Part shown: piece by piece, positions 3,510-50,088 of the stretch
Numbering within the stretch: position 1 is the first letter of the stretch
Layout: every line of letters begins with the position of its first letter
Sequence record: OR352956.1
DNA: 64,000 nucleotides
Source of the DNA: Escherichia phage AV126
Direction: 5' to 3' (one strand)
The notes under the pieces: generated by a model
What the model was told of the DNA's origin: nothing
Database searches by the model: none
The model's input: only the letters and a program-made list of their open reading frames with translations
Program-made: the position numbers and the translations under genes

Positions 3510-3989
3510 ATGGAACTCAATAAAGATACACTGTGGGAACTCTTCAAAACCTTCGCTGGTTTTAAAGAGAATTCTGAATCCCAACAAGATTCTATACCAT
3601 CTCAAAAACCTGAAACTCTAGTCAAACAAAATAAATTTGATGAAGAAAAGATGCAGGTTATTGAGGTCTTGTATTGTCCACCTGAAGAAGACGATCTCCA
3701 CGGAGAGCGCATGTCTGATTTGGAAATCAGGAAGATGGTTGACAACTTCAATGAGAATATTACCAACATTAGTGGTAATCTTGGTCACATGAAGAACACC
3801 GATAAGTTTTCTCCAATTAAAGCTTGGGTAAATGAAGTCGATTGTTACATTGGTGACGAACTCGTTGTGGAAGGAACTCCCCTCGTTAAAATCCAATTCA
3901 ACGACCCTGAATTATATCAAGCTCGTAAAGACGGCGTTCTTAAAGGTTTGAGTATAGGCGCAATGGGCGTTAAAGTCAAGAAGGACTAA
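3510..3989 (+). CDS. putative prohead protease
   Basis: 159 aa between portal and scaffold; His in DLHGERM and Ser in GLSIGAMG resemble the HK97-type prohead protease His/Ser pair; synteny plus weak motif. Confidence 0.4.
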   Translation: MELNKDTLWELFKTFAGFKENSESQQDSIPSQKPETLVKQNKFDEEKMQVIEVLYCPPEEDDLHGERMSDLEIRKMVDNFNENITNISGNLGHMKNTDKFSPIKAWVNEVDCYIGDELVVEGTPLVKIQFNDPELYQARKDGVLKGLSIGAMGVKVKKD

Positions 3990-3991
3990 TC

Positions 3992-5107
3992 GTGGCAAAT
4001 ACATATTTAACTAACGTAGACTTTTCAGGAAAAGCTACGGAAGAGTCACTAGGTGCTCATATTGCTTACACTTTTGATTTTCAAGGTGGAGCGGCATCTG
4101 GTTATAATACCCCCCTTTTATTTAAGTCAGACGGATCTCCAGACATAACTTTTGAAAAGTTAGAAGCTCTCACTAAAATGGGAGAAGATGTTACAGAGTT
4201 ACGTAAAAGCTATATTCAACAAGTGATGGATCGCATCTCTGAAAAAGTGCGTGAAAAATTTGAAGCTGGTTGGGATTGGGTTTACGTTATTGATGCTGAC
4301 TTCGATGCGAACGTTGCAATTTTCTGTTCAGATAACGGTATGTTCTCTGTTGGCTTTAAAGTTGACGGACTGAATGTTGAAGTTGAAGAGGTTGCTAAAC
4401 CTGTTGTTCGTGTTACTGATTATCAAGTTGTTGATGGTGATGTAATGATCTCCATTGATTTCTTTGAGGACGTTTTAGACGATGCTTTGAGTAATCTCGT
4501 TAAGAGTTCCTTGAAACAAAGTCAAGTTAAAGATTATTTAGTGAAAGCTCACGCTAAAGCTAATACAAACTCTGTGGATGCAGAGGCTAACCCCGCAGGT
4601 GATAAATCTGCAAACACAACTGGAATCAATAAAGGAGAAACCCCTTTGGAAAATATCAACAAAGAAGAATTCCTGAAATCTGCTGAATTCCAAGAACTGA
4701 TGAAAGCACAGATCGCTGAAGCTGTAGAAAAAGCAGCCGCAGATGCACGTGCAGCCGCAGAACTTGAAGCACAGGAAAAAATTGCTAAGGCAGAACAGGA
4801 AGCAGAAGAACTTCGTAAAGCTGAACAAGCTCGTATCGAAGAAGAATATACAACTGTTGTTAAATCCTATTCTTTCGTAGAAGAAGACAAAGTTGAAGCT
4901 CTCGTTAAATATCTGGTAGACAATAAAGATATCGCTGAAACTATCGTCAAAGCATTCGAAAAAGCACGTGCAGAAGTGGACGCAGTTAAGAAAGAATTTG
5001 GAACAGAACGTGGTGTTGATGTGATCAATACTCAACCTGTAGCTAAATCTTCTTCTGAACTGATTAGTCAGAAAGCTGCTGAACTTAAAAAAGCCCAGAA
5101 ACAATAA
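3992..5107 (+). CDS. capsid scaffold protein
   Basis: GTG start; 371 aa, acidic, long Ala/Glu/Lys coiled-coil stretch (AEAVEKAAADARAAAELEAQEKIAKAEQEAEELRKAEQARIEEE); between protease and capsid genes. Confidence 0.55.
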   Translation: MANTYLTNVDFSGKATEESLGAHIAYTFDFQGGAASGYNTPLLFKSDGSPDITFEKLEALTKMGEDVTELRKSYIQQVMDRISEKVREKFEAGWDWVYVIDADFDANVAIFCSDNGMFSVGFKVDGLNVEVEEVAKPVVRVTDYQVVDGDVMISIDFFEDVLDDALSNLVKSSLKQSQVKDYLVKAHAKANTNSVDAEANPAGDKSANTTGINKGETPLENINKEEFLKSAEFQELMKAQIAEAVEKAAADARAAAELEAQEKIAKAEQEAEELRKAEQARIEEEYTTVVKSYSFVEEDKVEALVKYLVDNKDIAETIVKAFEKARAEVDAVKKEFGTERGVDVINTQPVAKSSSELISQKAAELKKAQKQ

Positions 5108-5126
5108 TCTTAGGAGATTAAATTAA

Positions 5127-5525
5127 ATGGCTAAAGGAATTACTTTATCTAACTCTCGCCAGGAATTCGGACACCTGGTTCTGGGTGGAGTGTTTAGCTC
5201 TGACCTTGGACACTGTGTACGTGAAGTTAACCTGGTTAAAACAGCAACCATGAAAATTGGTTCTATCCTGAAAGCTGACAACACTGAAGCTGCTAAAGCT
5301 GAAGCTGCCGATGCTGCTAAAGTTCTGATTTGGACTGATGCTCTGTTCGGTATTGACGATGTAGCAGTAGGTGACACTTTCACCGCAGTTGTTGGCGTAC
5401 GTGATCTTACTCTGAACCGCTTTGCAGTATACTACAAAGATGGCTCCCTGGTAGATGACGCTGGCGTAGCAGCACTGGAAACACATGATCTGAAACTGAC
5501 CGAAAAAGTCGTTTTCACTTCTTAA
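5127..5525 (+). CDS. putative head decoration protein
   Basis: 132 aa, AGGAG SD, codon-optimised, directly upstream of major capsid gene (lambda D-E-like arrangement). Confidence 0.4.
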   Translation: MAKGITLSNSRQEFGHLVLGGVFSSDLGHCVREVNLVKTATMKIGSILKADNTEAAKAEAADAAKVLIWTDALFGIDDVAVGDTFTAVVGVRDLTLNRFAVYYKDGSLVDDAGVAALETHDLKLTEKVVFTS

Positions 5526-5546
5526 TTTTAATAGGAGATTAATATA

Positions 5547-25410: not shown

Positions 25411-26897
25411 TGGACGAATATGGTTTGACAGATGCGGGATTTGTAATCCCGACTTTTGACGATGTTTTAAACAACTACATGACAGCAGTAAAAAACACAT
25501 TTGGTGCAGATGCAGCCACTTCGGAAGATACTGTGATCGGACAACTGTTTAGAATAATTGCATACACAGATTACACATTGTGGGAAGGTATGCAAGGGGT
25601 TTATAATACTCAAACACTGGATGGTGCAGAAGGTATTTATCTTGACGAAATCTTTTCTAAACGTGGTTTCTATCGAGCAGGGGCAGCAGCAAGTACAGGT
25701 TATGCATATGTTAAGAGTAATAACAAAGCAGCTTGGACTTATGAGCTAGGCACGGATATTTACTTCAACTCTGATAGTGATATGAACTACTATGTTAGCA
25801 CACCAACTATGTTGAATGCTAAGATTGCAGCTTATCAAATCTCTCGTGCTAATGCAACTGCTACAGGTGTTCCAAATATTACTTTTTATGCACAAAGTGC
25901 GGTAGACGGAGGACTAAACAGTAAAACACTTGCACCTGGTTCTTCTACATTTATAACAGATCTTGAAACTTTTATCAAGGCGAACTTAACAGAGGCTGAT
26001 CGTAGTCTTGTATTTTCTGATTCTGGTAACTTGTCAATTGGTTTTACTTCTTTAACCAGTGATACTCCAGTGGGATTAGTAACTCCTATCAAATTTTATG
26101 CTAGTGTTCCAGTTGGAACCAAATGGAGTGAAATTCCGGTAGTTGCAGCAGAGAAAGGATACAATCCGGTGGGTGTGGAGTCTATTACAGGGATATCTTC
26201 TACCTTTACAGGTTATCTTGATAGTGGTAACTTCTATTCGTTTTCTCCTGGTCGAGATGTTGAGACAGATGCAGAATTCCGCTCTCGTTTCAATGACAAC
26301 GTTGACGAAGCTAACGCAGGGACACGAGCAGCTATTGTGAAAGCTCTGTTACTTACAGATGGTGTTACTAAGGTGAAGATTTATGATAACCCTACGTTAC
26401 ATGATCAAGAACATGCTCCAGCTATGACTTTCCAGACTATAGTCTATGGAGGGAGTGCTGAAGAAGTTGCTGAAGTTATTTACAAAACTAAACCAATCAA
26501 CAGTTTGACACATGGAACAACTAATATAACTGTTACAACGGAAGACGGAGGACAAGAAATTATTCGTTTTTCTCCTGGTGCTTCTGCTACGTATTCCGTA
26601 AAACTTGTTTATCAAACTGTCAACGGAACAACTTTAAGTGGAACAGAAAAACAAAACATTGTAGAAGCTTTACAAAACCTGCAAGCTTACTTTGAATTAG
26701 GTTCTTCAGTAACGAACGATCAAATCAAAGGTGTTATTTATGCAGCACTTGCTTTTGGACGCTTGACTTCTCTTCGTGTTTATGTTAAACTTAATACTGA
26801 GGATGACAGTAAATATACAGAGAATAATATAGTTCCTGCTTATAATGTTGTCCCTTCTTTTGACCTTGATAACATTTCTTACGAGTATGGAGTGTAA
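25410..26897 (+). CDS. baseplate J-like protein
   Basis: 495 aa; LDGAEGIYLDEIFSKRGFYRAGAAASTGYAYV resembles the baseplate-J motif; followed by I-like gene and tail fibre. Confidence 0.45.
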   Translation: MDEYGLTDAGFVIPTFDDVLNNYMTAVKNTFGADAATSEDTVIGQLFRIIAYTDYTLWEGMQGVYNTQTLDGAEGIYLDEIFSKRGFYRAGAAASTGYAYVKSNNKAAWTYELGTDIYFNSDSDMNYYVSTPTMLNAKIAAYQISRANATATGVPNITFYAQSAVDGGLNSKTLAPGSSTFITDLETFIKANLTEADRSLVFSDSGNLSIGFTSLTSDTPVGLVTPIKFYASVPVGTKWSEIPVVAAEKGYNPVGVESITGISSTFTGYLDSGNFYSFSPGRDVETDAEFRSRFNDNVDEANAGTRAAIVKALLLTDGVTKVKIYDNPTLHDQEHAPAMTFQTIVYGGSAEEVAEVIYKTKPINSLTHGTTNITVTTEDGGQEIIRFSPGASATYSVKLVYQTVNGTTLSGTEKQNIVEALQNLQAYFELGSSVTNDQIKGVIYAALAFGRLTSLRVYVKLNTEDDSKYTENNIVPAYNVVPSFDLDNISYEYGV

Positions 26898-32614: not shown

Positions 32615-34639
32615 ATGAATTTAACAAGACCTAATAGTGCGATAGCCGATCTGGTAGAAGCTACTTATCGAAAACGTCGCAGTTTTGAGGCAGGTTTTAC
32701 ATTACGTAATTCCCGTGAAGTTTTGCTGTTAGCGGCAGAAGGGAATTATTACCAATGGAAAGGAACTTTTCCTAAAGTAGTTCCAGCAAACTCTACGCCA
32801 GCCACCACAGGCGGTATTTCTTCCCTTGCATGGCAAAGTGTTGGGACCGCTGATGATATAGCAATTATCAATGCCAAGTTTACGGCAATGCAGCAACAGA
32901 TTGATGATCTGTCGGAAACAATACCTGAAGCTGGTAAATCGGCTTATCAGATCGCACTTGATAATGGTTTTGTTGGAACAGAAGCACAATGGCTTGCTTC
33001 TTTGAAAGGGGATACTGGTGCTCAACTTAATATTAAAGGATCGTTAGCAAGCACTAGTGAACTACCATCTACAGGTAACGTTGCAGGGGATGGTTATATC
33101 GTAGGCGATGTGATTTACGCTTGGGACGGTTCTGTTTGGAAACTTATTTCTTCTCTTGGACCAGAAGGGAAATCAGCTTACGAGGTATGGTTGGCAGATG
33201 GTAATACAGGATCTGTTTATGACTTTCTTGCCTCTATAAAAGGTGATAAAGGAGACGTTGGTCCTACAGGTCCACAGGGTGCACCTGGTGTCAACGCTAA
33301 TGGTTTTGATTACCGTGGAGATTTGCCTTCTACAAGTAACTTACCACAACCTAACTCTGAAAACGTAAGCCAAGCTTATTCTATTAATGGTAATCTTTAT
33401 GTCTCTAATGGGACAGCTTGGGTCAACATGGGTAATATTGTTGGTCCTCAAGGTCCACAAGGTGAGGCAGGTAAAGACGGTCTAGATGGAACAGATGGAG
33501 ACGAAGGGAAATCTGCATATCAAAGTTGGCTGGACGCTGGTAATGAAGGGACAGAAGTAGATTTTATTGCCTCGCTTAAAGGTCCAAAAGGAGACAAGGG
33601 AGAGCAAGGAGAACGAGGACCACAAGGCGAATTAGGTCCACAAGGACCAGTGGGTGCAACAGGATCAGGTTTAGAGATTATCGGGGTTCTGAACAGCGAA
33701 GCTGAACTTCCTCCGACTGGAGAAGTAGGTGACGCATATAAAATTAATAATGATTTGTATGTTTGGGTTCAAGATGCTACGGAATGGATGAATGTTGGTA
33801 GTCTTGGAGGAACATCAATTACAGCTAAAGGTCATGTTCCGAACAGTGAAGCTCTACCTGTTTACAATAACTATGGTGATGCCTACTTAACTGAAGACAC
33901 TAGTAATCTTTACATCTATACCTACGATCAAGACACCAATTCCGCATCTTTTGTTGACATGGGAAGTATTAAAGGCGACAAAGGTGAAAAAGGGGATAAA
34001 GGAGATAAGGGTGATCCTGGAACAAACGGAACCAACGGTACTGATGGGACCAACGGTAAGGACGGCGCACAGTGGTTTGTAGCAACAACTAATCCAGTCG
34101 CAGGAGACGGTGTTATCAATGATTACGCCTTCAATACTACCACTGGAGCAGTGTTTAAGAAAACAGATTCTTCTACGTGGACACTTATAGGAACTCTTCC
34201 TAGTATACCAGAAGCCCCTCAAGACGGCTTGACGTATGGTCGTTCTGATGGAAACTGGATCGAAATATCAGGATCAGATCCTACGGAAGCTATAACACCA
34301 ACTAGAGTTACAGCAGGTTTCATGGAACTTGAAACAACTACTACCAACTCTGGAGCATCTTGGACTCCTTCTGGAACTTCCAATATGTATGTTGTTACAG
34401 TAACTGACGCTCTGACAGTTGGAGCATGGCCTGGTGTCACTGGCTCTACAAAACCTAAAGCGTTTTCAGCAATGATTTATTTGATTCAAGATACAACGGG
34501 ACACACGGTTACACTAGATGCGTCTTATGGAGCACTAAATGATACAGAAATAGCAACTACTGCTAACGCAGTAACAATTTTGCAATTAACGTATCCTGGT
34601 GTGGGTGATATCGTGGACATGGTTGTTGTAACACGATAA
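32615..34639 (+). CDS. collagen-like repeat tail fibre protein
   Basis: 674 aa; four Gly-X-Y blocks alternating with repeated GKSAYQ...SLKG modules; own terminators on both sides. Confidence 0.65.
   Translation: MNLTRPNSAIADLVEATYRKRRSFEAGFTLRNSREVLLLAAEGNYYQWKGTFPKVVPANSTPATTGGISSLAWQSVGTADDIAIINAKFTAMQQQIDDLSETIPEAGKSAYQIALDNGFVGTEAQWLASLKGDTGAQLNIKGSLASTSELPSTGNVAGDGYIVGDVIYAWDGSVWKLISSLGPEGKSAYEVWLADGNTGSVYDFLASIKGDKGDVGPTGPQGAPGVNANGFDYRGDLPSTSNLPQPNSENVSQAYSINGNLYVSNGTAWVNMGNIVGPQGPQGEAGKDGLDGTDGDEGKSAYQSWLDAGNEGTEVDFIASLKGPKGDKGEQGERGPQGELGPQGPVGATGSGLEIIGVLNSEAELPPTGEVGDAYKINNDLYVWVQDATEWMNVGSLGGTSITAKGHVPNSEALPVYNNYGDAYLTEDTSNLYIYTYDQDTNSASFVDMGSIKGDKGEKGDKGDKGDPGTNGTNGTDGTNGKDGAQWFVATTNPVAGDGVINDYAFNTTTGAVFKKTDSSTWTLIGTLPSIPEAPQDGLTYGRSDGNWIEISGSDPTEAITPTRVTAGFMELETTTTNSGASWTPSGTSNMYVVTVTDALTVGAWPGVTGSTKPKAFSAMIYLIQDTTGHTVTLDASYGALNDTEIATTANAVTILQLTYPGVGDIVDMVVVTR
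33242..34066 (+). repeat. interrupted collagen-like Gly-X-Y triplet repeats (coding)
   Basis: Blocks at about 33242-33292, 33443-33511, 33581-33670, 33974-34066. Confidence 0.8.
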
Positions 34640-39977: not shown

Positions 39978-42900
39978 TCAATGACAGGATGCCCAGGAAT
40001 TACCCACGTCATATCCGGCAGTAAGCTGAACATTAAGATTGTAAAATTCTCCAGCCTTAGTAACAGCTAAAGCAGCAAGTTCACCTGCCCGACTATAGGC
40101 TGTAAACCATCCACCTTTGGGAGATTCATGAATGTTAGCCCAAATTTGCCCTGTCTCTTTTTCCTTATTATGCTTCCATTCTTCAACTTTAGCAAGGCAT
40201 TCTTTATCAATTTTCTTTTGTTCTTCAGGATCGTCTACTTTCTTCCAACCTAATGATTCAGGTGAAAACCATTTAAATTCTACAAGGCTACGAGAAACTT
40301 CAAGCTGGGCTTCATCGTGATATGCAATCATTTGTTGCACGAAGTCTTTATTCTTCCAGTCATCTTTAAAGAAGTCAACACTTAGCCCTTCTTCTTCGAT
40401 CATGTCGTCATAAATAACCATTGCACGTTTAGCACAGATAACCCCACCACTTTGGAACAGAGAGTTAAGAATCGCGTGAGCAGAACGAGTAGGAACCTTA
40501 CGACCGTCAATACCCAAAACATACTGTTTACCAGTCTTAACCCAGAAATCGTTTAAACGTTCTTTAAGACGCGCCAGTGGGAATGCAGCTTCCCAGAAAG
40601 CATCGAACACCAGTTGCCCTGTGTATTTATCGCTACCAATTGTTTTAGCAACCTTGTCTGCTTGAGCGCCGTACGTGCAGTTACCTGTCAACGTGATAAA
40701 ACCATTCTGACGCATAACAAAAGATTCATTCTTGGTTGAGATACAGAATACATCTGTTACTCGTGAAAAAGCTTTTGTCAACCTCTGTCCTGAAATAGTT
40801 TGTCCGTTATTGATTGCCAACGTTAACATGCCATCTTTTTGAACAGAACCATACGCAATATTACCTGTCATATTGATAGCCAAAGAAACAGCGTCGCTAA
40901 TCTTACCTTTCTTTTGACGGATAACAAGACTGCCGTTTGGACGCTTATGACCATCTGCCATCCAGAATGCCTCTAAGAATGCTTCCAACACAGCTTGACC
41001 TTGATTAGCAATTAATGTAGACCAGTCCACTTCGTGCTTATTTTGACCCACTTCAACGCCACATTTAGTCAAAAATTCCCTAAACTGACTCTTATTAGGA
41101 CGTAATGAATGCATCGTTCCAGATACATACTCGTCAAATGTGAAGATATCTCCCACAGCCTCACGTGCTTCTTCTAAGAATTTTTTCTCATCTTGATCTA
41201 CCGTGACTGTAATACCCATTACTTTATTTCTGGCTTTGCTAGACCACTTATAGTAGCCATCCGAAAGAAGCCAGCCTAAGAAACGACCTTCTTCCACTGT
41301 TAGAGTAGACACCACACCAGATCGCCCTGCTGCAATTATGTTTGACTCCGAGTTTAAATCCTCTGTAGATCTACGCTCCACTTGCATATACTTAACATTG
41401 TTACCATCTGATCGCATAGTTTTTCTCTGTGCGTTAATCCACATATGATCGTTAGTAACTTCTACTTTGAACCACTTGTTACCGAGAGAGACAACTTCTG
41501 CATCGTTATAGTCCCACAGCTTAAGAATAGGGGTATATTCGTAAAGAGCGGTGTGAGTATTATAAGATAAAACTTCATCCCCTACAAAAAGATCTTTACG
41601 TTTCTTCCAACCCGTTCTTGTTAACACTTCCGTATTATCTACAGGTACACAACCGTATTTAACGCTCTTAGCAGGACCACGTTCAAACTTACGTCCAATA
41701 ATATCAGTAATATGTTTTGCCATCATAGTATGCACATCGTTTGGTTTTTCTAACAGAAGTGCATTACAGTAAGCATGATCAGGATTATCATATCTCCACG
41801 TATAATGCGACTCAATCTTCGCCTCTAATGAATCAAAGTCATAACCAATCTGGAAGTATTTAGGAACCTCTACACCAAACAGGTTACGCATCTGCCATCC
41901 AAACAAAGAGGTAACACGAGGAATATTGGCTACAGACCTATGCTTCATACGAGAGGTTGCTGCATCGCATGTAGCCGCTGGCGTAGGTATACGTCCATCT
42001 GCACGAACTGCTGCCAAGAAACCTTTGTTGTATTCTTGATCTTCTTCGTCTTCTTCCCAATCAGCACCGCCACCTAAAATAGAGTTCCTACGATGCTTAT
42101 ACGTTAAGTATTCTACAATCTGTGTAGCATAAGGAAACTTCTCACCCAAAGCTTGCAGGTTAGGACAAATTTCTTTTTCCTGACCTTTGGTAAAACATGG
42201 GTTAGTCAATACTTTAAGACCGCGACCTTTACCTTTTGCTATACGCTCTTGAATCTTCCTTTCCAAGGTTTCCGGTGTGCACTCCAGATGATCACAACGG
42301 TCCTGACAAAAATTAGAAGATAGAGTTTGCTCAACGTAAGCTCGAATACCTTTCTGAAGTTCTTCCTCACTCTTTTTAATCTTGGTGCCAGATTTAAGAG
42401 TCAAATCTTTATCTTTATATTCCGATGGTACCCAACCTAATCCTACAAGCCAGTTTTTAATATGGGTTGTATCGTTTAATGTTGCAGGGATGTGAGGATC
42501 ACATAAAGGCTCATCTGCTGCAACTGGCAGTTTCCACTCTTTCCCCAACATAACTAACCACCAATCTCCATCCCTCTCTTCCAAATGACCATCATGTTTC
42601 TTAGCAAAATTGATCATATGGTTAGTTGGCTCTAAGTTCTTTTTAATTTGCAACTTAGGTGGAATAAAAGCCTTAAGATAGCCTTTTGTTGCTGGTTTAG
42701 GTGGCAAAATAGGCTCAACGAGTAAACGAAGACGCTCCATTTCTGCATCCAAAAAAGCAAGGTTCTCTTCTGCTTGCTTCATGTTAAAAGCAAACCCACG
42801 GTGTTCCTGGCGCGTGATAATGTCTGCTACACGTTGTTCAAGTTCAAATGGACCTTCCCATTTATCATAATCCCCCCATTCTTCCATGAGGTAATTATAT

Positions 42901-43547
42901 ACACTTGTGTTGGCTTTGTTATCATAGATACAGTAATAAAGCATATCCGCAGCAAAAGTCTTAAATCGATCTTCTTCTGGAATCTCTTTACGGAAATCTA
43001 TTTTTACATCCCCACCTGCCTTTCGAGAAAGTGCTGCCAAACTATGTCCTGATTTGCCCTCAATCTTTCGATCTGGGTTTAACACTTTACTCAAAATCAA
43101 GGAGTCAATAAGTTTTACCTTATTTTTGCCCCACGTATTATATTTAACACTGTAATCTAATCCATAAAACAGTTTTGTAGCCAACCAGTCGTAGTTGATA
43201 CCGTTGTGAGCCACAGCCATTTCAACCAGATATTCAGGCTTGTCTTTAAAATAACCTTCATGATTAATAAAGTCTGGGAAATCTTTTAGTTGAAAATGCG
43301 TGTAATCTTGCGCCACATACTCTTTAAGAACATATGTGTATTTACCATCTGACTCTTCATAAGGACGCCCATCAAAGATGTATTTAGGGCCATCGTGGAA
43401 AGCTACTATTTCTCCTGTTTCATGGTTCTCTAAGACAATACAGTGCATTTGAAATGTGTCTTTGAGACGATAAGGACTAGCTAAATAATCAATAGTGTCA
43501 TTATTCAACAATCCGTTTGCTTCAATATCCCATGTAAACTTACTCAC
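39978..43547 (-). CDS. family A DNA polymerase with 3'-5' exonuclease domain, interrupted by an intein
   Basis: 1189 aa; exo motif WDIEANGL; motif A-like DFDSLEAK; motif B split (RGPAKSVKYG / CTYGAQADKVA) by 324 aa insert. Confidence 0.85.
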   Translation of the reverse strand: MSKFTWDIEANGLLNNDTIDYLASPYRLKDTFQMHCIVLENHETGEIVAFHDGPKYIFDGRPYEESDGKYTYVLKEYVAQDYTHFQLKDFPDFINHEGYFKDKPEYLVEMAVAHNGINYDWLATKLFYGLDYSVKYNTWGKNKVKLIDSLILSKVLNPDRKIEGKSGHSLAALSRKAGGDVKIDFRKEIPEEDRFKTFAADMLYYCIYDNKANTSVYNYLMEEWGDYDKWEGPFELEQRVADIITRQEHRGFAFNMKQAEENLAFLDAEMERLRLLVEPILPPKPATKGYLKAFIPPKLQIKKNLEPTNHMINFAKKHDGHLEERDGDWWLVMLGKEWKLPVAADEPLCDPHIPATLNDTTHIKNWLVGLGWVPSEYKDKDLTLKSGTKIKKSEEELQKGIRAYVEQTLSSNFCQDRCDHLECTPETLERKIQERIAKGKGRGLKVLTNPCFTKGQEKEICPNLQALGEKFPYATQIVEYLTYKHRRNSILGGGADWEEDEEDQEYNKGFLAAVRADGRIPTPAATCDAATSRMKHRSVANIPRVTSLFGWQMRNLFGVEVPKYFQIGYDFDSLEAKIESHYTWRYDNPDHAYCNALLLEKPNDVHTMMAKHITDIIGRKFERGPAKSVKYGCVPVDNTEVLTRTGWKKRKDLFVGDEVLSYNTHTALYEYTPILKLWDYNDAEVVSLGNKWFKVEVTNDHMWINAQRKTMRSDGNNVKYMQVERRSTEDLNSESNIIAAGRSGVVSTLTVEEGRFLGWLLSDGYYKWSSKARNKVMGITVTVDQDEKKFLEEAREAVGDIFTFDEYVSGTMHSLRPNKSQFREFLTKCGVEVGQNKHEVDWSTLIANQGQAVLEAFLEAFWMADGHKRPNGSLVIRQKKGKISDAVSLAINMTGNIAYGSVQKDGMLTLAINNGQTISGQRLTKAFSRVTDVFCISTKNESFVMRQNGFITLTGNCTYGAQADKVAKTIGSDKYTGQLVFDAFWEAAFPLARLKERLNDFWVKTGKQYVLGIDGRKVPTRSAHAILNSLFQSGGVICAKRAMVIYDDMIEEEGLSVDFFKDDWKNKDFVQQMIAYHDEAQLEVSRSLVEFKWFSPESLGWKKVDDPEEQKKIDKECLAKVEEWKHNKEKETGQIWANIHESPKGGWFTAYSRAGELAALAVTKAGEFYNLNVQLTAGYDVGNSWASCH
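40680..41651 (-). mobile_element. intein with double-LAGLIDADG-type homing endonuclease in polymerase motif B
   Basis: Insert begins CVPVDNTEVLTRTGW, has TNDHMWI block B-like motif and FLGWLLSDGYY / FLEAFWMADGHK, ends FITLTGN before Cys +1; in frame, 972 nt. Confidence 0.7.
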
Positions 43548-44341
43548 TATTCCTCCTTTCTAATGTTCTCCAGAACCCACTGAAGTTCTTTTAAACTTAA
43601 ACTTCTTACTCCCGCAGTTTTACTAGCTTCAGTTTTAAGTAACGGGTAAGCCTCAATGATACGTGTTTTAAGATCAGAAGTCAAGGCTTTTAAAAAATAG
43701 GTAGATGCTTCAGATAAAGAATCTTCTTCTGTTAGCACTTTACCTGCGCTTGCTCCGGCTCTCCTAACGGCTATGTCGTAGTCTTTGCTGTTACCTAATA
43801 CGAACAGTCGATTCTCTCCTAAAACAACGGGAGAACGCTTCTGGCTGCGTTTAATCCATATCTGGAATACACAAGGAACATCCCAAGGTTCTCCATGAAG
43901 AATAAAAGATCCTTTGGGACACTCTTCTTCGTGAAGAAGATGCATATAAGGATTTAGTTTGTGTGCAAAAAAGATTTTTTGAAATGTGCGAGGCAAGATA
44001 AAACAAATACCACCTTCGTTATCCAACATTTCAGCACAATGGTTAAAGAACTTAATGGCAAGACTAGCATTTTTTCCAAATGGAGGATTACCGACAAAAG
44101 CAGTTACACTACCAACAGACTCAACAGATTGAGCTAAAAAATCTGCCTCAATACAATCTTCAAACTTAGGGTCAATATCAAAAGAAGTTATGTTTTTAAA
44201 ACAAGAAGAGAAAGCTCCTTCTCCCGCAGATGGTTCTACGTAGTTAGCTTCCTCTCCAAAAATTTCTTTGATCTTATCACATAAGAACCCCGCATAAGCG
44301 GGGTTAGTGTAATATTGATCAAGTGTGTTCAACTTGCTCAA
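43547..44341 (-). CDS. N6-adenine DNA methyltransferase (gamma-class motif order)
   Basis: 264 aa; SAM motif VEPSAGEGAF then catalytic NPPF (FVGNPPFGK); no adjacent restriction endonuclease. Confidence 0.75.
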   Translation of the reverse strand: MSKLNTLDQYYTNPAYAGFLCDKIKEIFGEEANYVEPSAGEGAFSSCFKNITSFDIDPKFEDCIEADFLAQSVESVGSVTAFVGNPPFGKNASLAIKFFNHCAEMLDNEGGICFILPRTFQKIFFAHKLNPYMHLLHEEECPKGSFILHGEPWDVPCVFQIWIKRSQKRSPVVLGENRLFVLGNSKDYDIAVRRAGASAGKVLTEEDSLSEASTYFLKALTSDLKTRIIEAYPLLKTEASKTAGVRSLSLKELQWVLENIRKEE

Positions 44342-44350
44342 TAGTCCTCC

Positions 44351-44782
44351 TTAGTTGTTAGCGAACTCAATAGTGAGGTCAACTTTACCATCATCAGAAA
44401 TAACCATGTTTTTGGTATTTTTAAAGATGATATCTACTTTACCTTCGCTTACACGACAGAATGCAACACCATCTGCAACTTTATCAATATAATATTTGTA
44501 AGAAAGAATACCCACTTTACTACGACCAGCACCTTTTGTGAAAGAAGGGCTTACATCGAAACGGAAACCTTTAGAAGAAACAACACGGTAAGAACGTCCA
44601 GTTGGGATATGTTCAATAACAGAGACATTGTTCTCAACAACTTTTACAGCAAACTCTTCAGGATGATCCTCAACAATCATGTGTGGGATGGCAAATGCCA
44701 ACGCTTGTTTGTGTTTAATAACACCAGCACCCAGAGCACCAGCAGCTTTAACTTTTGCATTCAGATCGATTGTCATACGCAT
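44351..44782 (-). CDS. hypothetical protein
   Basis: 143 aa; AGAGGAG SD; own promoter. Confidence 0.5.
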   Translation of the reverse strand: MRMTIDLNAKVKAAGALGAGVIKHKQALAFAIPHMIVEDHPEEFAVKVVENNVSVIEHIPTGRSYRVVSSKGFRFDVSPSFTKGAGRSKVGILSYKYYIDKVADGVAFCRVSEGKVDIIFKNTKNMVISDDGKVDLTIEFANN

Positions 44783-44815: not shown

Positions 44816-44844
44816 AGTATAAGTCCCTTCCGTAAAGTTGTCAA
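44816..44844 (-). promoter_or_regulatory. sigma70-like promoter (- strand), TTGACA-N17-TATACT
   Basis: -35 at 44844-44839, -10 at 44821-44816 (- strand); downstream of terminator. Confidence 0.5.
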
Positions 44845-46665: not shown

Positions 46666-46944
46666 TTAAAATGGTTCGTTAGTCTCCATCATATATTCTG
46701 CTTCTAGTTCTTCCATGTGCTTTCTAAATTGGAAAGCAATTTCTGCTACAGTTACATTTAAATCTTTTTCAAAAACTTCTGTAGATCCTTCATAAAAACG
46801 AATACCGTCAATTAAAAGCCCTCCGTGGTAATCCCAATCGCTTTCACGAGAAAGTGGATTAGGTTCTTCATAATAGTAATCCACCTCCACGACCAAGGCT
46901 TTCCCGTTACGAGCGGTGTATTCAAAATCAAAAGTGTTAATCAT
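46666..46944 (-). CDS. hypothetical acidic protein
   Basis: 92 aa, Glu/Asp/Tyr-rich. Confidence 0.45.
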   Translation of the reverse strand: MINTFDFEYTARNGKALVVEVDYYYEEPNPLSRESDWDYHGGLLIDGIRFYEGSTEVFEKDLNVTVAEIAFQFRKHMEELEAEYMMETNEPF

Positions 46945-47888
46945 TATAACTCCTCAAATAAAAGCCTACGACGCTCATTCAACACATCAATGTGATAATG
47001 AGTCCTGACATACTTAGCTAATGCTAATCCTTTCTCCATGCAAACATCGGGAGCACTTAATAAGTATTCCGTAATATCTTTCCACTCGGAAGGTGTTTCA
47101 GCAAAGAATAACAAATCTTTAAACTCTTGTGTATGATAATTCTCACGAGGAGAGCAGATTAAAGGTAAACCCTTAGCACCTGCCTCAAGAATTTTAAGAT
47201 TGCTTTTTGCATTATTAAACACGTTATCGATCAATGGTGCAAGACTGATTTGATGACCATCGTAAGATTCCATGTAGTTGGCATATGGTCTTACACCTTC
47301 ATAAACACAAGTTGGTGCTACATTTTCCCTGATTAAAGACCATTCACGACTACTTAAAACTTCAGAATCCCTACGAAAACCACATATTGTAAGATCTTTA
47401 CCAAAATCGGGCAAGATAGCCAAATCTTGTTTATGTGTTTCACTTCCAGCCCAGACTAATGGAGTTTTGGAGTAGCGATCACGGGTCAACACAAATTGAC
47501 CTTCATCGTAAGGAAGTCCATTAGGGATTATGTGCACATTATCATTGTATTGTGAAAGTTCAACTTGCAAGGCAGGTGTCGTAGTTGTAACAAGATCACT
47601 GTGCTCTAAAAACCATTTTAAATGTTCACGAATACCTGATTCAAAAATACCTTCTAACATGTGTCCTTTTGGAATAACTAAAGAGTCATCCAAATCCATA
47701 ACCATTTTAAAGCCTAGGTTTTTAAGGGCTAAAAAGCCCTCTTTACCTTTTGTTGGCACTCCGTTAAAAACGAAAACGTTGTGTTTAGGTTGTGAAGAGA
47801 ACTGCCTTGAGTAAGGCAGCACTACCCTATGGAAATCGCAGACACTATAATTGATTCCGTTACGATTGTCAAGAATTATTTGTCCCAT
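46944..47888 (-). CDS. glycosyltransferase, GT-B fold (paralog 1)
   Basis: 314 aa; C-terminal SNLKILEAGAKGLPLICS resembles GT1/GT4 motif; paralog of 47896-48843. Confidence 0.55.
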   Translation of the reverse strand: MGQIILDNRNGINYSVCDFHRVVLPYSRQFSSQPKHNVFVFNGVPTKGKEGFLALKNLGFKMVMDLDDSLVIPKGHMLEGIFESGIREHLKWFLEHSDLVTTTTPALQVELSQYNDNVHIIPNGLPYDEGQFVLTRDRYSKTPLVWAGSETHKQDLAILPDFGKDLTICGFRRDSEVLSSREWSLIRENVAPTCVYEGVRPYANYMESYDGHQISLAPLIDNVFNNAKSNLKILEAGAKGLPLICSPRENYHTQEFKDLLFFAETPSEWKDITEYLLSAPDVCMEKGLALAKYVRTHYHIDVLNERRRLLFEEL

Positions 47889-47895
47889 ACTTCAC

Positions 47896-48843
47896 CTACA
47901 AACTTTCAATAACCTGGCGTCGCAACTCGTTTGCATCTGCCAGATTATAATGTGTTCGAACATGTTCAGCCAAGAACAAGCCACGATCTTCCCGATAATT
48001 TGGATTGCGAAGAAGCTTAACAATTTCGTAATGCCATTCTGCTTTATTCTCTGCGTAAGCAACAGCGCGAGCATCTACAGGGTTAAAATAAGGTAATACC
48101 TTAGAACAAACAATTGGAATACCTTTTGCTCCAGCTTCCAGGATTTTGAGATTGCTTTTACAATTATTAAAATCATTATCTACCAAAGGAGCTATAGCAA
48201 TAGCATGACTTTCGTAAACACTCATGTAATTATCTAAATCTTTTACAGCGGCTTTATATTTGGCATTTGGTAAATTTCTGCGAATCTTAATCCACTCTTG
48301 TCCCGTGATGCTTTGTGATGCTTCATATCCCGCAATAGTAAGAAGTTCATCATCGAAAGTATTAGAGACTAGTCGTAAGTCTGGTTCGTGACTAGCACCG
48401 CCAGCCCATACAACAGGGGTACCGGATGAACGATCATTTGACAAAGTGAATTGTCCGCTATCAAAAGGAAGTGCATTTCGGATCACAACAACATTCCTAT
48501 TTAAGTGACGGATCTTATATGCCAAATATTCCGTAGTCACAATAACCACATCAGCAAGCTTAACCATAGCTACAATAGCATGAGTGTTTGACTCGTATAG
48601 ACTTGCTAAATAATGTTCTGGATTAAGTTGGTAAAAATCATCTAAGTCTACAACAACCTTAACACCTTGACGTTTCAAAGATAAAACGTATTCTGCACCT
48701 TTAGAGTGGATACGGTTAAACACAACAACATCTTTCTTAGGTTGAATATTATTGTTGTTAAATGGTATAACAATACGATGATAGTCACAACCGCTGTGAG
48801 GTTTTGCATCAATTTTTAGTTTAGACCATTTTTTATTTGACAT
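47896..48843 (-). CDS. glycosyltransferase, GT-B fold (paralog 2)
   Basis: 315 aa; same N-terminal (CDYHRIVIPF) and C-terminal (SNLKILEAGAKGIPIVCS) motifs as neighbour. Confidence 0.55.
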   Translation of the reverse strand: MSNKKWSKLKIDAKPHSGCDYHRIVIPFNNNNIQPKKDVVVFNRIHSKGAEYVLSLKRQGVKVVVDLDDFYQLNPEHYLASLYESNTHAIVAMVKLADVVIVTTEYLAYKIRHLNRNVVVIRNALPFDSGQFTLSNDRSSGTPVVWAGGASHEPDLRLVSNTFDDELLTIAGYEASQSITGQEWIKIRRNLPNAKYKAAVKDLDNYMSVYESHAIAIAPLVDNDFNNCKSNLKILEAGAKGIPIVCSKVLPYFNPVDARAVAYAENKAEWHYEIVKLLRNPNYREDRGLFLAEHVRTHYNLADANELRRQVIESL

Positions 48844-49516
48844 GTGCTAGTGCCTCCTCATAGGAAATTCGGATTTTCCCATTTTTAATATCCTCTAAAG
48901 ATGCTTTATATTCTTCCCAGTTAATCCCAATAGCAGCCTCTTTCTCTTCTTTTGTCAGGTTAGCAAAAGGCATAGGATTGTTTCCAAAAACATCGTCTGG
49001 GTGGATATAAGCCATGATACGAAGTGGACAAGGTGTTGCCTGAATACCATGATTCAAACCAGCAGCTTGCAAACGGTGTCCCCATTCAGCATCTTCAAAA
49101 CCATAACCGTGAGTGTAAGGACGGAAATAACCCATCTTCTCAACAACGGAACGAGAATACATTGCAAATTGACACATTGCAAGTTCCCAGAGAATAACTT
49201 CTCCTTTGCTTCCAACAACTTTATCTTTGAAATACTCCGGCATACCAAAGAAATCCCATCCTCCAGAGACAGCTTGATCTACAAAGTATGTTTCCCATCC
49301 CTCCATGACTGGGTAGCAATCATCGTCAAAAATAAACCAATAATCATAACCTTCTTCATAAAACTGGTGCATAAGTTCATTCCTGGCATAAGCTACACCT
49401 TTACGATCTGGATCGTTGAATACTCGAAAATCTGCACGTGGATCTGTTACAAGGTAGTCTTTAAGTGGACGGACACCTACAGTGATAACACCCACTCCGA
49501 TTTTAATATTTTCCAT
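48833..49516 (-). CDS. glycosyltransferase, GT-A-like (DxD)
   Basis: 227 aa; YARNELM and WFIFDDDCYP acidic DxD-type motif. Confidence 0.5.
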   Translation of the reverse strand: MENIKIGVGVITVGVRPLKDYLVTDPRADFRVFNDPDRKGVAYARNELMHQFYEEGYDYWFIFDDDCYPVMEGWETYFVDQAVSGGWDFFGMPEYFKDKVVGSKGEVILWELAMCQFAMYSRSVVEKMGYFRPYTHGYGFEDAEWGHRLQAAGLNHGIQATPCPLRIMAYIHPDDVFGNNPMPFANLTKEEKEAAIGINWEEYKASLEDIKNGKIRISYEEALAHVK

Positions 49517-49524
49517 TTTCTCTC

Positions 49525-50088
49525 CTAAATAGTTTTACTGTGATCGTGACAGTGTAATAAATGATGTATAGACCGTTGAGGATTTGTTTGACCTAATCTG
49601 TAAATGTGAAACAGATACATTCCCCGCATCAATCCTAACCTCTTTCCTTTTTCATGTAAAGTGCGAGAGAAAATTAAGTCGAATTGGATAGATTTTTCTT
49701 CGAAAGGAATTTCGTTCCACAACGATTTTCTAAAAAGCAAAAAGAAACCTGCCAGAGGTGTTCCGAAAGGAACTTCTTCAACACTCACTTTATGATATTC
49801 TCTTGCAATCTTAGCATATTCTATATGGTTTAGAATATCTGGATCATCGTTAATTTGGTTAGAGAAAAGCTGATAACCACTACCTAACCTGTTACAAGTT
49901 GCACCTATTACATCAAAAGGTGGGTTTGAAATAACAAGCTCTTCAAGCATAGATGGTTGATCAGGCAGGAGGAACATTGTATCGGTATCTCTTAAGCACA
50001 CCCAACTATCATCTGGAAGAACGGCAATAGCTTCATTGATAGCCTTGCCGATATTTCCTGTCAGATAGGGAGTAATATAATAAATCAT
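49525..50088 (-). CDS. putative GT-A-like glycosyltransferase
   Basis: 187 aa; CLRDTDTMF DxD-like motif; tandem with other glycosyltransferases. Confidence 0.35.
   Translation of the reverse strand: MIYYITPYLTGNIGKAINEAIAVLPDDSWVCLRDTDTMFLLPDQPSMLEELVISNPPFDVIGATCNRLGSGYQLFSNQINDDPDILNHIEYAKIAREYHKVSVEEVPFGTPLAGFFLLFRKSLWNEIPFEEKSIQFDLIFSRTLHEKGKRLGLMRGMYLFHIYRLGQTNPQRSIHHLLHCHDHSKTI

Follow-up and report, generated by a model that had tools for sequence, protein, structure and literature searches.

A probable GTAC-specific orphan adenine methyltransferase of the gamma class, encoded next to the DNA polymerase gene of a phAPEC8-like coliphage

Described methyltransferases closest to the phage protein

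Adenine methyltransferases of this kind are already known from coliphages; in phAPEC8, rV5 and many relatives the gene product is annotated as "putative DNA N6-adenine methyltransferase". The window analysed here (the whole 64,000-nucleotide stretch of Escherichia phage AV126, record OR352956.1) comes from a Phapecoctavirus, a phAPEC8-like coliphage, and the methyltransferase encoded in it was found to be 97% identical to phAPEC8 gp078 and about 53% identical to the rV5 and Bas orthologues. It agrees with gp078 in length, in motifs, in position and in overlapping the polymerase gene by 1 nt; the polymerase of phAPEC8 is devoid of an intein whereas that of the studied phage carries one, and otherwise nothing material differs. 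Two more methyltransferases are carried by phAPEC8, a small GATC-type enzyme (gp177) and a Dcm-like one (gp194), both outside the window. The former and bas51_0176 of phage Bas51 are likewise orphan adenine methyltransferases of the same phage groups, but they differ from the studied protein in size (169-177 aa), in family (phrog_799), in their target, which is GATC, and in the location of the gene outside the window.

In Bas51, the small NPPY/NPPF methyltransferase was reported to be the GATC enzyme, which triggers the retrons Asa1 and Squ1, and nearly every genomic site was methylated (PMC12548924). We considered the retron-triggering "N6 adenine methyltransferase" of Bas51 as an orthologue of the studied protein and rejected it, as the residues D69, D79 and T83 identify the 177-aa enzyme instead. 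The anti-restriction label of the P1 DarB type found in record LR597654 was also discarded; DarB is a very large, virion-packaged methyltransferase-helicase fusion, whereas the protein here has 264 aa and consists of the methyltransferase domain alone, and the resemblance was confined to the catalytic core (positions 732-859 of 1259 in phrog_9133).

The predicted fold of the methyltransferase resembles those of M.TaqI, M.BseCI, CamA and MmeI. This class I methyltransferase fold could be superposed on gamma-class enzymes of solved structure, and not in the Rossmann core alone, with alignments spanning 222-247 residues, although sequence identity to M.TaqI, M.BseCI and CamA was only 13-19% and these enzymes are much longer (421-579 aa against 264 aa, the recognition domain of the studied protein being about 100 aa long). 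Structure matches in BFVD were uninformative. By sequence, the nearest solved relatives of the catalytic core are METTL5 and Ta1320, with which the NPPF motif is shared; these, however, act on RNA and have neither the conserved C-terminal domain nor a link to restriction-modification.

M.PabI and M.HpyAXII yield GTm6AC, the same product as that proposed here for the phage enzyme. M.HpyAXII is a compact gamma-class protein too, with motif IV at residue 87 (PMC2588503) as compared with N85 in the studied protein. M.PabI and M.HpyAXII belong to PabI-family restriction-modification systems, whereas the phage methyltransferase has no restriction partner. A further GTAC-specific m6A methyltransferase is M.CviQI. 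The published GTAC methyltransferases are mutually very divergent, with 8-18% identity (PMC2588503).

The methyltransferase gene and its junction with the polymerase gene

The methyltransferase CDS (43547..44341, minus strand) encodes 264 aa between a TTG start and a TAG stop, matches the phrog_5172 profile (E = 3.5e-109) and is the orthologue of phAPEC8 gp078 and rV5 gp096. A Shine-Dalgarno sequence, AGGAGG (44346..44351, minus strand), was located 4 nt before the TTG and shares bases with the TAA that ends the upstream ORF. Three motifs were recognised on the minus strand, namely motif X (DQYYT, residues 8-12, 44306..44320), motif I, which is the AdoMet-binding loop (EPSAGEGAF, residues 36-44, 44210..44236), and the catalytic amino-methyltransferase motif IV (NPPF, residues 85-88, 44078..44089). 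The order X-I-IV with a C-terminal domain in last place is that of the gamma class, and motif I stands ahead of NPPF as the earlier note had described. In an alignment of 49 homologues (38-92% identity) the invariant residues were D8 and T12 in motif X, E36, P37, A39, G40 and G42 in motif I, N85, P86 and P87 in motif IV with G89 directly after it, and, outside the motifs, D55; judged from this alignment, the motifs are conserved far beyond chance. The gene itself was 95-99% conserved across 64 phage records.

Residues 166-264 (43550..43846, minus strand) form a conserved C-terminal domain of some 100 aa, which bears the motifs RRxGxxAGK and TAGxRSxS and is presumed to be a compact target-recognition domain. 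Across the family it was aligned with no large gaps, and its invariant residues were kept in all 49 sequences.

Profile searches placed the protein among Type II methyltransferases. It matched the PADLOC models PDLC03255 (E = 8e-35, residues 21-254 on positions 15-250 of the 269 in the profile) and PDLC03256 (E = 7e-28, nearly full length). With Pfam, Eco57I scored 16.7 bits, below its cut-off of 25.3, and NCBIfam gave no match; nothing above threshold was obtained when the protein, the C-terminal domain alone and several homologues were scanned with the Pfam and NCBIfam models, and the PF26055 label precomputed for some homologues was not reproduced even at E = 10. The missing match to a curated model reflects divergence from these models and leaves the motif and fold results unaffected. 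The assignment to gamma-class N6-adenine methyltransferases made in the earlier note thus holds, with agreement between the motifs, the fold prediction, the Type II models of PADLOC and the restriction-modification genes found beside bacterial homologues (see below), and we consider it very probable that the ORF product is a DNA m6A methyltransferase.

Downstream of the methyltransferase gene, and translationally coupled to it, lies the gene of a family A DNA polymerase (39978..43547, minus strand) with a 324-aa intein at 40680..41651. The minus strand at the junction reads ...AAGGAGGAA-TAG-TG..., the TAG occupying 43549..43547 and the polymerase GTG 43547..43545. The overlap of methyltransferase stop and polymerase start that had been claimed is therefore real and amounts to one base, 43547, which is common to both codons; the same was seen in phAPEC8. 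Within the coupling junction (43545..43556, minus strand; GGAGGAATAGTG) the GGAGG serving as ribosome-binding site of the polymerase sits inside the 3′ end of the methyltransferase gene.

On the other side, a 143-aa ORF of unknown function (phrog_9938; 44351..44782, minus strand) belongs to the same apparent operon. It had no Pfam or PADLOC match and so is not a recognisable restriction enzyme, and a tblastn search with the restriction-enzyme partners of the bacterial homologues returned zero matches in the window, phAPEC8 and Bas51. The earlier note's statement that no restriction endonuclease is adjacent was borne out, the two neighbours being this ORF and the DNA polymerase gene; as a partner was found neither next to the gene nor anywhere in the window, the phage methyltransferase is an orphan.

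The best sigma-70-like promoter of the region (TTGACA-17-TATACT, 44816..44844, minus strand), a consensus match only (11/12), coincides with the site where the phAPEC8 annotation has a host-dependent promoter; sigma-70-like sites are just as numerous in the region as expected from shuffled sequence. From this candidate promoter all three genes, from the 143-aa ORF through the methyltransferase to the polymerase, would be transcribed. There is a faint suggestion that the methyltransferase may be expressed early.

Bacterial homologues and GTAC as the candidate target

The bacterial homologues, which are carried by the genomes of Poseidonibacter ostreae, Sphingomonas and Burkholderia anthina among others, were found in a restriction-modification setting. 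A restriction-enzyme gene directly followed the homologue in 29 of 80 bacterial loci; in 22 of the 80 its product has about 210 aa and matches REase_II PDLC03460, the gene overlapping or directly abutting the homologue, and in six the product has about 160 aa and matches REase_II PDLC03550. Sequence searches of Pfam, NCBIfam and the PDB gave no name for either of these partner families. At one locus, L062, the methyltransferase gene (3986..4792) is followed, with a 4-nt overlap, by a PabI-family gene (4789..5535, 248 aa). Its product matched R.CcoLI (7cfa, E = 7e-18) and R.PabI (1.7e-8) and keeps the EWQIGY and ASENHKRDI motifs, including the catalytic Y, H and D. The characterised PabI-family enzymes all act on GTAC and are all blocked by GTm6AC (PMC10273834, PMC2588503), a modification that likewise stops RsaI (PMC2588503). 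A Helicobacter "phage" record with a methyltransferase and a downstream gene was also considered and set aside; it holds a related but different Type II system (PDLC03274), and its nuclease is not PabI-like.

A second line of evidence came from Bas51, whose orthologue bas51_0200 is 53% identical to the studied methyltransferase. Nanopore calling in this phage gave 509 methylated adenines at GTAC in the wild type and 511 in a mutant lacking GATC methylation (PMC12548924, S4 Table). We counted 258 GTAC sites in the Bas51 genome, that is 516 adenines, so that about 99% of them carry m6A. The mutation lies in a different gene, that of the 177-aa methyltransferase, and as the signal persisted when GATC methylation was lost, it does not depend on the GATC enzyme. 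Apart from PMC12548924, the literature yielded neither methylomes nor RsaI digests of phAPEC8- or rV5-like phages, and no methylation data for Phapecoctavirus.

The third line was the rarity of the site itself. No other 4-bp palindrome in the window was as strongly depleted as GTAC (48 observed against 193 expected, z = -10.4), and it likewise ranked first in Bas51 (258 against 441) and in about 135 kb of Phapecoctavirus DNA (128 against 398); its observed/expected ratio in 50 kb of E. coli K-12 was 0.90. In the pooled flanks of the bacterial homologues, GTAC depletion was strong only at the six loci with the 160-aa partner (O/E 0.43), and otherwise it did not separate loci with a restriction enzyme from those without.

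The alternative that survives best, which we nevertheless regard as unlikely, is that the protein is an orphan DNA N6-adenine methyltransferase with a target other than GTAC, the family being multi-specific and the Bas51 signal arising from another enzyme or from a base-calling artefact. Bas51 has a third candidate adenine methyltransferase, the Mod-like beta-class protein bas51_0070 (441 aa), to which no site has been assigned either; this could be the GTAC enzyme, and hence the data of PMC12548924 alone do not tie GTAC to the family of bas51_0200. About 349 "other" methylated sites are also left over in that phage, and the 6mA calls at GTAC could in principle reflect modification of a neighbouring cytosine by the Dcm-like enzyme of the phage. 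Against this, the layout of bas51_0070 is that of a Type III Mod, which usually has asymmetric sites, and 349 sites are about what is expected for one 5-bp asymmetric motif; moreover, bas51_0070 is absent from Bas59 and from the examined Phapecoctavirus sequence, yet GTAC is strongly depleted there. The bacterial loci can be read in both directions. At least three unrelated restriction-enzyme families partner the homologues, which may mean several specificities, and the specificity might have changed because the C-terminal domain of the studied protein shares only 24% identity with that of the PabI-linked member and 44% with that of Bas51. On the other hand, the PabI partner at L062 ties a full-length family member to GTAC, and the family has no hypervariable target-recognition domain, the gap-poor C-terminal alignment of 49 sequences suggesting one shared specificity. 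Taking these points together, we hold GTAC to be the probable target of the studied methyltransferase.

Probable role and meaning for phAPEC8-like phages

The reading that we favour, with fair confidence, is that of an orphan gamma-class GTm6AC methyltransferase which serves in anti-restriction and is made together with the replication proteins. It is predicted to be an active stand-alone enzyme, from a family of compact Type II restriction-modification methyltransferases, that would have lost its restriction partner. The host-type promoter would give a three-gene unit with the 143-aa ORF first, the methyltransferase in the middle and the DNA polymerase last, in which translation of the polymerase would begin one base inside the methyltransferase stop codon. 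Given this coupling and the operon, the methyltransferase would be produced alongside the replication proteins, with newly replicated phage DNA as its substrate. With 5′-GTAC-3′ as the most likely target and GTm6AC as the product, progeny genomes would become immune to GTAC-specific enzymes, either endonucleases of the RsaI type or base-excision enzymes of the PabI type, and the roughly four-fold depletion of GTAC in the phage would act beside methylation.

The earlier note had offered two purposes for self-methylation. Protection against host restriction is the probable one in view of the restriction-modification context of the bacterial homologues, and we place moderate confidence in anti-restriction as the selected function; nothing was found to support control of replication or packaging. 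In the BASEL study, Vequintavirinae and their relatives were reported to be exceptionally sensitive to the restriction-modification systems used (PMC8594841), so the methyltransferase gives no broad protection; protection at GTAC only is not in conflict with this.

It is much less probable that methylation serves the phage's own biology, whether in marking replicated DNA, timing packaging, regulating genes or discriminating phage from host, with the polymerase coupling being functional in itself. Orphan methyltransferases with regulatory roles are known, for example Dam and CcrM, the gene forms part of the replication module and shows translational coupling with the polymerase, and the rarity of GTAC sites would be in keeping with a signal. 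Yet this coupling is a feature of Phapecoctavirus alone; the orthologue of rV5-like phages comes after a DnaQ-like exonuclease gene, RNR or endonuclease V genes adjoin it in phages outside the rV5-like group, and in Asteriusvirus and Flaumdravirus, too, its neighbours are different. In addition, the 48 GTAC sites of the window showed no obvious clustering, many 6-bp restriction sites are avoided by the studied phage as well, in keeping with anti-restriction as a general strategy, and the bacterial roots of the family lie in restriction-modification systems. The least credible reading, which was rejected, is that adenines in the rRNA or tRNA of the infected host are methylated by an enzyme of the METTL5/Ta1320 type (COG2263). 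Similarity to such enzymes is limited to the Rossmann core of about 150 residues while the alignments with DNA methyltransferases extend well beyond it, the conserved 100-aa C-terminal domain is missing in these single-domain proteins of about 200 aa, and the restriction-modification operons of the 29 bacterial homologues and the full-length PADLOC Type II matches speak against it. All this argues strongly for DNA as the substrate of the orphan methyltransferase.

Taken alone, the finding is routine: a phage orphan methyltransferase whose annotation can already be found in public records. What is added is modest, namely a testable specificity, GTAC, for a widespread and uncurated family of compact gamma-class enzymes, and a link between the extreme GTAC depletion of the phage and a concrete defence pressure. 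The methylated sites of therapeutic-candidate coliphages also bear on host-range prediction against restriction-modification, on the interpretation of nanopore data and on methylation-triggered defences. More tentatively, phAPEC8- and rV5-like coliphages may have been under long-standing GTAC-directed restriction pressure, possibly including that of PabI-type enzymes. Their answer would have two layers: GTAC sites would have been purged 2- to 4-fold, and those remaining would be fully methylated to GTm6AC by a gamma-class enzyme of unusually small size. Were this correct, a family of more than 2,000 proteins that is covered by no curated model would receive its first functional assignment, the source of the unassigned GTAC methylation in the published Bas51 methylome would be accounted for, and GTm6AC might itself be sensed by retrons or methyl-directed nucleases.

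Gene arrangement and gamma-class motifs

The window originates from a Phapecoctavirus, one of the phAPEC8-like myoviruses of E. coli (~150 kb), and over 60 phage records match the 2 kb around the methyltransferase gene at 98-99% identity. About 20 GenBank 'Campylobacter phage' records (MG0656xx), in which the gene is 93-99% identical, are rV5-like or phAPEC8-like coliphage genomes, and their host labels look wrong. The ORF (43547..44341, minus strand; 264 aa) begins with TTG, four bases after an AGGAGG, and ends with TAG; the G of this stop also opens the GTG start codon of the family A DNA polymerase gene that lies downstream (39978..43547, minus strand) and whose GGAGG sits within the 3′ end of the methyltransferase ORF. 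The same 1-nt overlap was found in phAPEC8. The polymerase itself has 1,189 aa vs 865 aa in phAPEC8, the difference being a 324-aa intein (40680..41651, minus strand; residues 633-956; KSVKYG/C...TGN/CTYGAQ) within Pol A motif B; it gave weak LAGLIDADG_3 matches, only ~11 phage records share it at ≥99% identity, and the Pseudomonas KIL phage polymerase contains a 32%-identical relative.

The earlier note had described both this stop-start overlap and a motif I ahead of NPPF, and the residue positions agreed with it: motif X, DQYYT, occupies residues 8-12, motif I, EPSAGEGAF, residues 36-44 and motif IV, NPPF, residues 85-88. NPPF also occurs in a 187-aa ORF (49525..50088, minus strand; phAPEC8 gp071, annotated as glycosyltransferase), which was rejected as a methyltransferase since it had no methyltransferase match, the tetrapeptide being a chance motif. 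Immediately upstream of the primase/helicase gene is a run of four glycosyltransferase genes (46944..50088, minus strand), and genes for a dTDP-rhamnose pathway are found at another place in the phAPEC8 genome.

Identity of the protein is 97% with phAPEC8 gp078 and ~53% with rV5 gp096, and both have for years carried the annotation "putative DNA N6-adenine methyltransferase", so the identification itself is not new. The only Pfam match was a sub-threshold Eco57I (16.7 vs 25.3 bits), NCBIfam returned no match, and in PHROG the protein falls in phrog_5172 (E = 3.5e-109), a family listed with unknown function. Homologues in a large protein database numbered 2,462; 49 of them (38-92% identity) were aligned, and no variation was seen in the residues of motifs X, I, II and IV or at R194, G196, G200, G244 and S247 in the C-terminal 100 aa. 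The AlphaFold model built from this alignment was confident (pLDDT 93), its top Foldseek matches in the PDB being M.BseCI, a Type I M subunit, CamA and M.TaqI, and the PADLOC Type II methyltransferase models, apparently built from REBASE sequences, matched nearly end to end (E = 8e-35). Motif order and fold thus both support the gamma-class assignment, and the protein is very probably a DNA m6A methyltransferase of some specificity.

DNA as the probable substrate, and the lone phage copy

The nearest solved relatives in a profile search of PDB sequences were Ta1320 and METTL5, and JGI labels some homologues "predicted RNA methylase"; the genomic context was therefore tested by scanning one bacterial genome per species, which gave 80 loci, and clustering the neighbouring ORFs. 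A conserved ~210-aa gene came next after the homologue in 22 loci, mostly overlapping its stop codon by a few bases, and a conserved ~160-aa gene with a D...E-x-K/R signature did so in 6 others. In PADLOC, the ~210-aa family matched the Type II restriction enzyme model PDLC03460 (best E = 1e-13) and the ~160-aa family matched PDLC03550 (best E = 3e-18). At a further locus, L062 (3986-5535; marine Alphaproteobacteria MAG chromosome, OZ242373.1), the next gene starts 4 nt inside the methyltransferase ORF and encodes a 248-aa PabI-family enzyme (R.CcoLI 7cfa, E = 7e-18; R.PabI 2dvy, E = 1.7e-8), which keeps the EWQIGY and ASENHKRDI motifs holding the catalytic Tyr, His and Asp. Characterised members of the PabI family come from Pyrococcus, Helicobacter and Campylobacter, groups to which this marine alphaproteobacterium does not belong. 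From these paired restriction enzyme genes, the proteins were judged to form a true restriction-modification methyltransferase family with DNA as its substrate.

The phage gene is flanked by the polymerase gene and a 143-aa ORF (phrog_9938) that had no PADLOC match, and no homologue of the bacterial partner nucleases was found in the window, phAPEC8 or Bas51. The absence of an adjacent restriction endonuclease, as first noted, is thus confirmed, and "orphan" is correct.

GTAC as the predicted target

Three independent lines, namely the PabI link, the methylome of Bas51 and site depletion, point to GTAC, and GTm6AC is the likely product of the phage enzyme. All characterised PabI-family enzymes (R.PabI, R.HpyAXII, R.CcoLI) act on 5′-GTAC and are blocked by GTm6AC from the partner methyltransferase (PMC10273834, PMC2588503); the L062 methyltransferase should therefore be a GTAC enzyme.

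For the Vequintavirus Bas51, the 6mA calls of Nakamura et al. (2025) (PMC12548924, S4 Table) put the number of methylated adenines in the wild type at 1,405 for GATC, 509 for GTAC and 576 for other sites; with T83P in "the N6 adenine methyltransferase", the counts were 35, 511 and 349, respectively. The genome (WalterGehring, MZ501111) holds 703 GATC (1,406 adenines) and 258 GTAC (516 adenines), so that both sites are ~99% methylated. D69, D79 and T83-NPPY identify the mutated gene as bas51_0176 (177 aa), which is not the orthologue of the methyltransferase described here. E. coli K-12 is not known to have a GTAC methyltransferase of its own; GTAC methylation, kept in the mutant, is therefore made by another enzyme. 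Among the three adenine-methyltransferase candidates of Bas51 (segments L104:14456-15781, L102:8091-8624 and L102:24069-24887 of its record), two are candidates for this activity: bas51_0200, of the family studied here, and bas51_0070, a 441-aa, beta-class, Mod-like protein that neither Bas59 nor the Phapecoctavirus sequence examined, phAPEC8 included, encodes. The ~349 residual "other" sites would more plausibly be the work of a Mod-like enzyme such as bas51_0070, since a single asymmetric 5-bp motif should occur about that often. The authors did not tie GTAC methylation to a gene (PMC12548924).

Of the 4-bp palindromes, GTAC was the most depleted in each of the phage sequences analysed, with 48 observed vs 193 expected for the window (z = -10.4), 128 vs 398 for ~135 kb of Phapecoctavirus (z = -13.5) and 258 vs 441 for Bas51 (z = -8.7). 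This was not so in the host, where a 50-kb stretch of E. coli K-12 had 139 vs 155 (O/E = 0.90). Two points weaken the case for GTAC: its depletion around bacterial homologues does not discriminate, and the C-terminal domain of the phage enzyme is only 24-44% identical to informative members. Many 6-bp restriction palindromes were also nearly absent (PstI and SphI 0; BamHI, PvuII, PvuI and NcoI 1 each in ~135 kb), and methylation would thus be one layer within a broader anti-restriction strategy. The genus carries two more methyltransferases besides gp078, both outside the window and given here by their positions in phAPEC8 NC_020079: gp177 (33211-33720; 169 aa; TNPPF), an orthologue of the retron-triggering GATC enzyme with 47% identity to the Bas enzyme, and gp194 (26117-26800; 227 aa), 48% identical to a Dcm-like enzyme.

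Probable expression and role in the phage

The top sigma-70-like site of the region (44844..44816, minus strand; TTGACA-17-TATACT) is found immediately ahead of the 143-aa ORF, at the position of an annotated host-dependent promoter in phAPEC8; as the scan gave no more sites in total than shuffled sequence, it counts as a consensus match only. No terminator-like site was seen between the 143-aa ORF, methyltransferase and polymerase genes. This arrangement suggests co-expression with replication proteins, by which newly made DNA would be methylated before packaging.

Control of replication or packaging, also proposed in the earlier note, found nothing in its support, and the polymerase coupling is not conserved across the family: the orthologue comes after a DnaQ-like exonuclease gene in rV5-like phages, where a Dcm-like methyltransferase adjoins the primase and polymerase genes, adjoins endonuclease V in an Asteriusvirus and follows ribonucleotide reductase genes in Pseudomonas KIL phages. 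The overlap is therefore read as ordinary operon compaction with no mechanistic link. Vequintavirinae and relatives were "exceptionally susceptible" to the restriction systems tested in BASEL (PMC8594841), which fits narrow single-site protection and argues against a general anti-restriction activity.

The interpretation as an orphan gamma-class DNA adenine methyltransferase is correct, and the finding is real but ordinary, being annotated already in public records. The analysis adds evidence that places the family in Type II restriction-modification systems and predicts a target, GTm6AC, that can be tested. It also puts forward an enzyme that may account for the GTAC methylation left unassigned in Bas51, and shows how strongly these phages purge GTAC.
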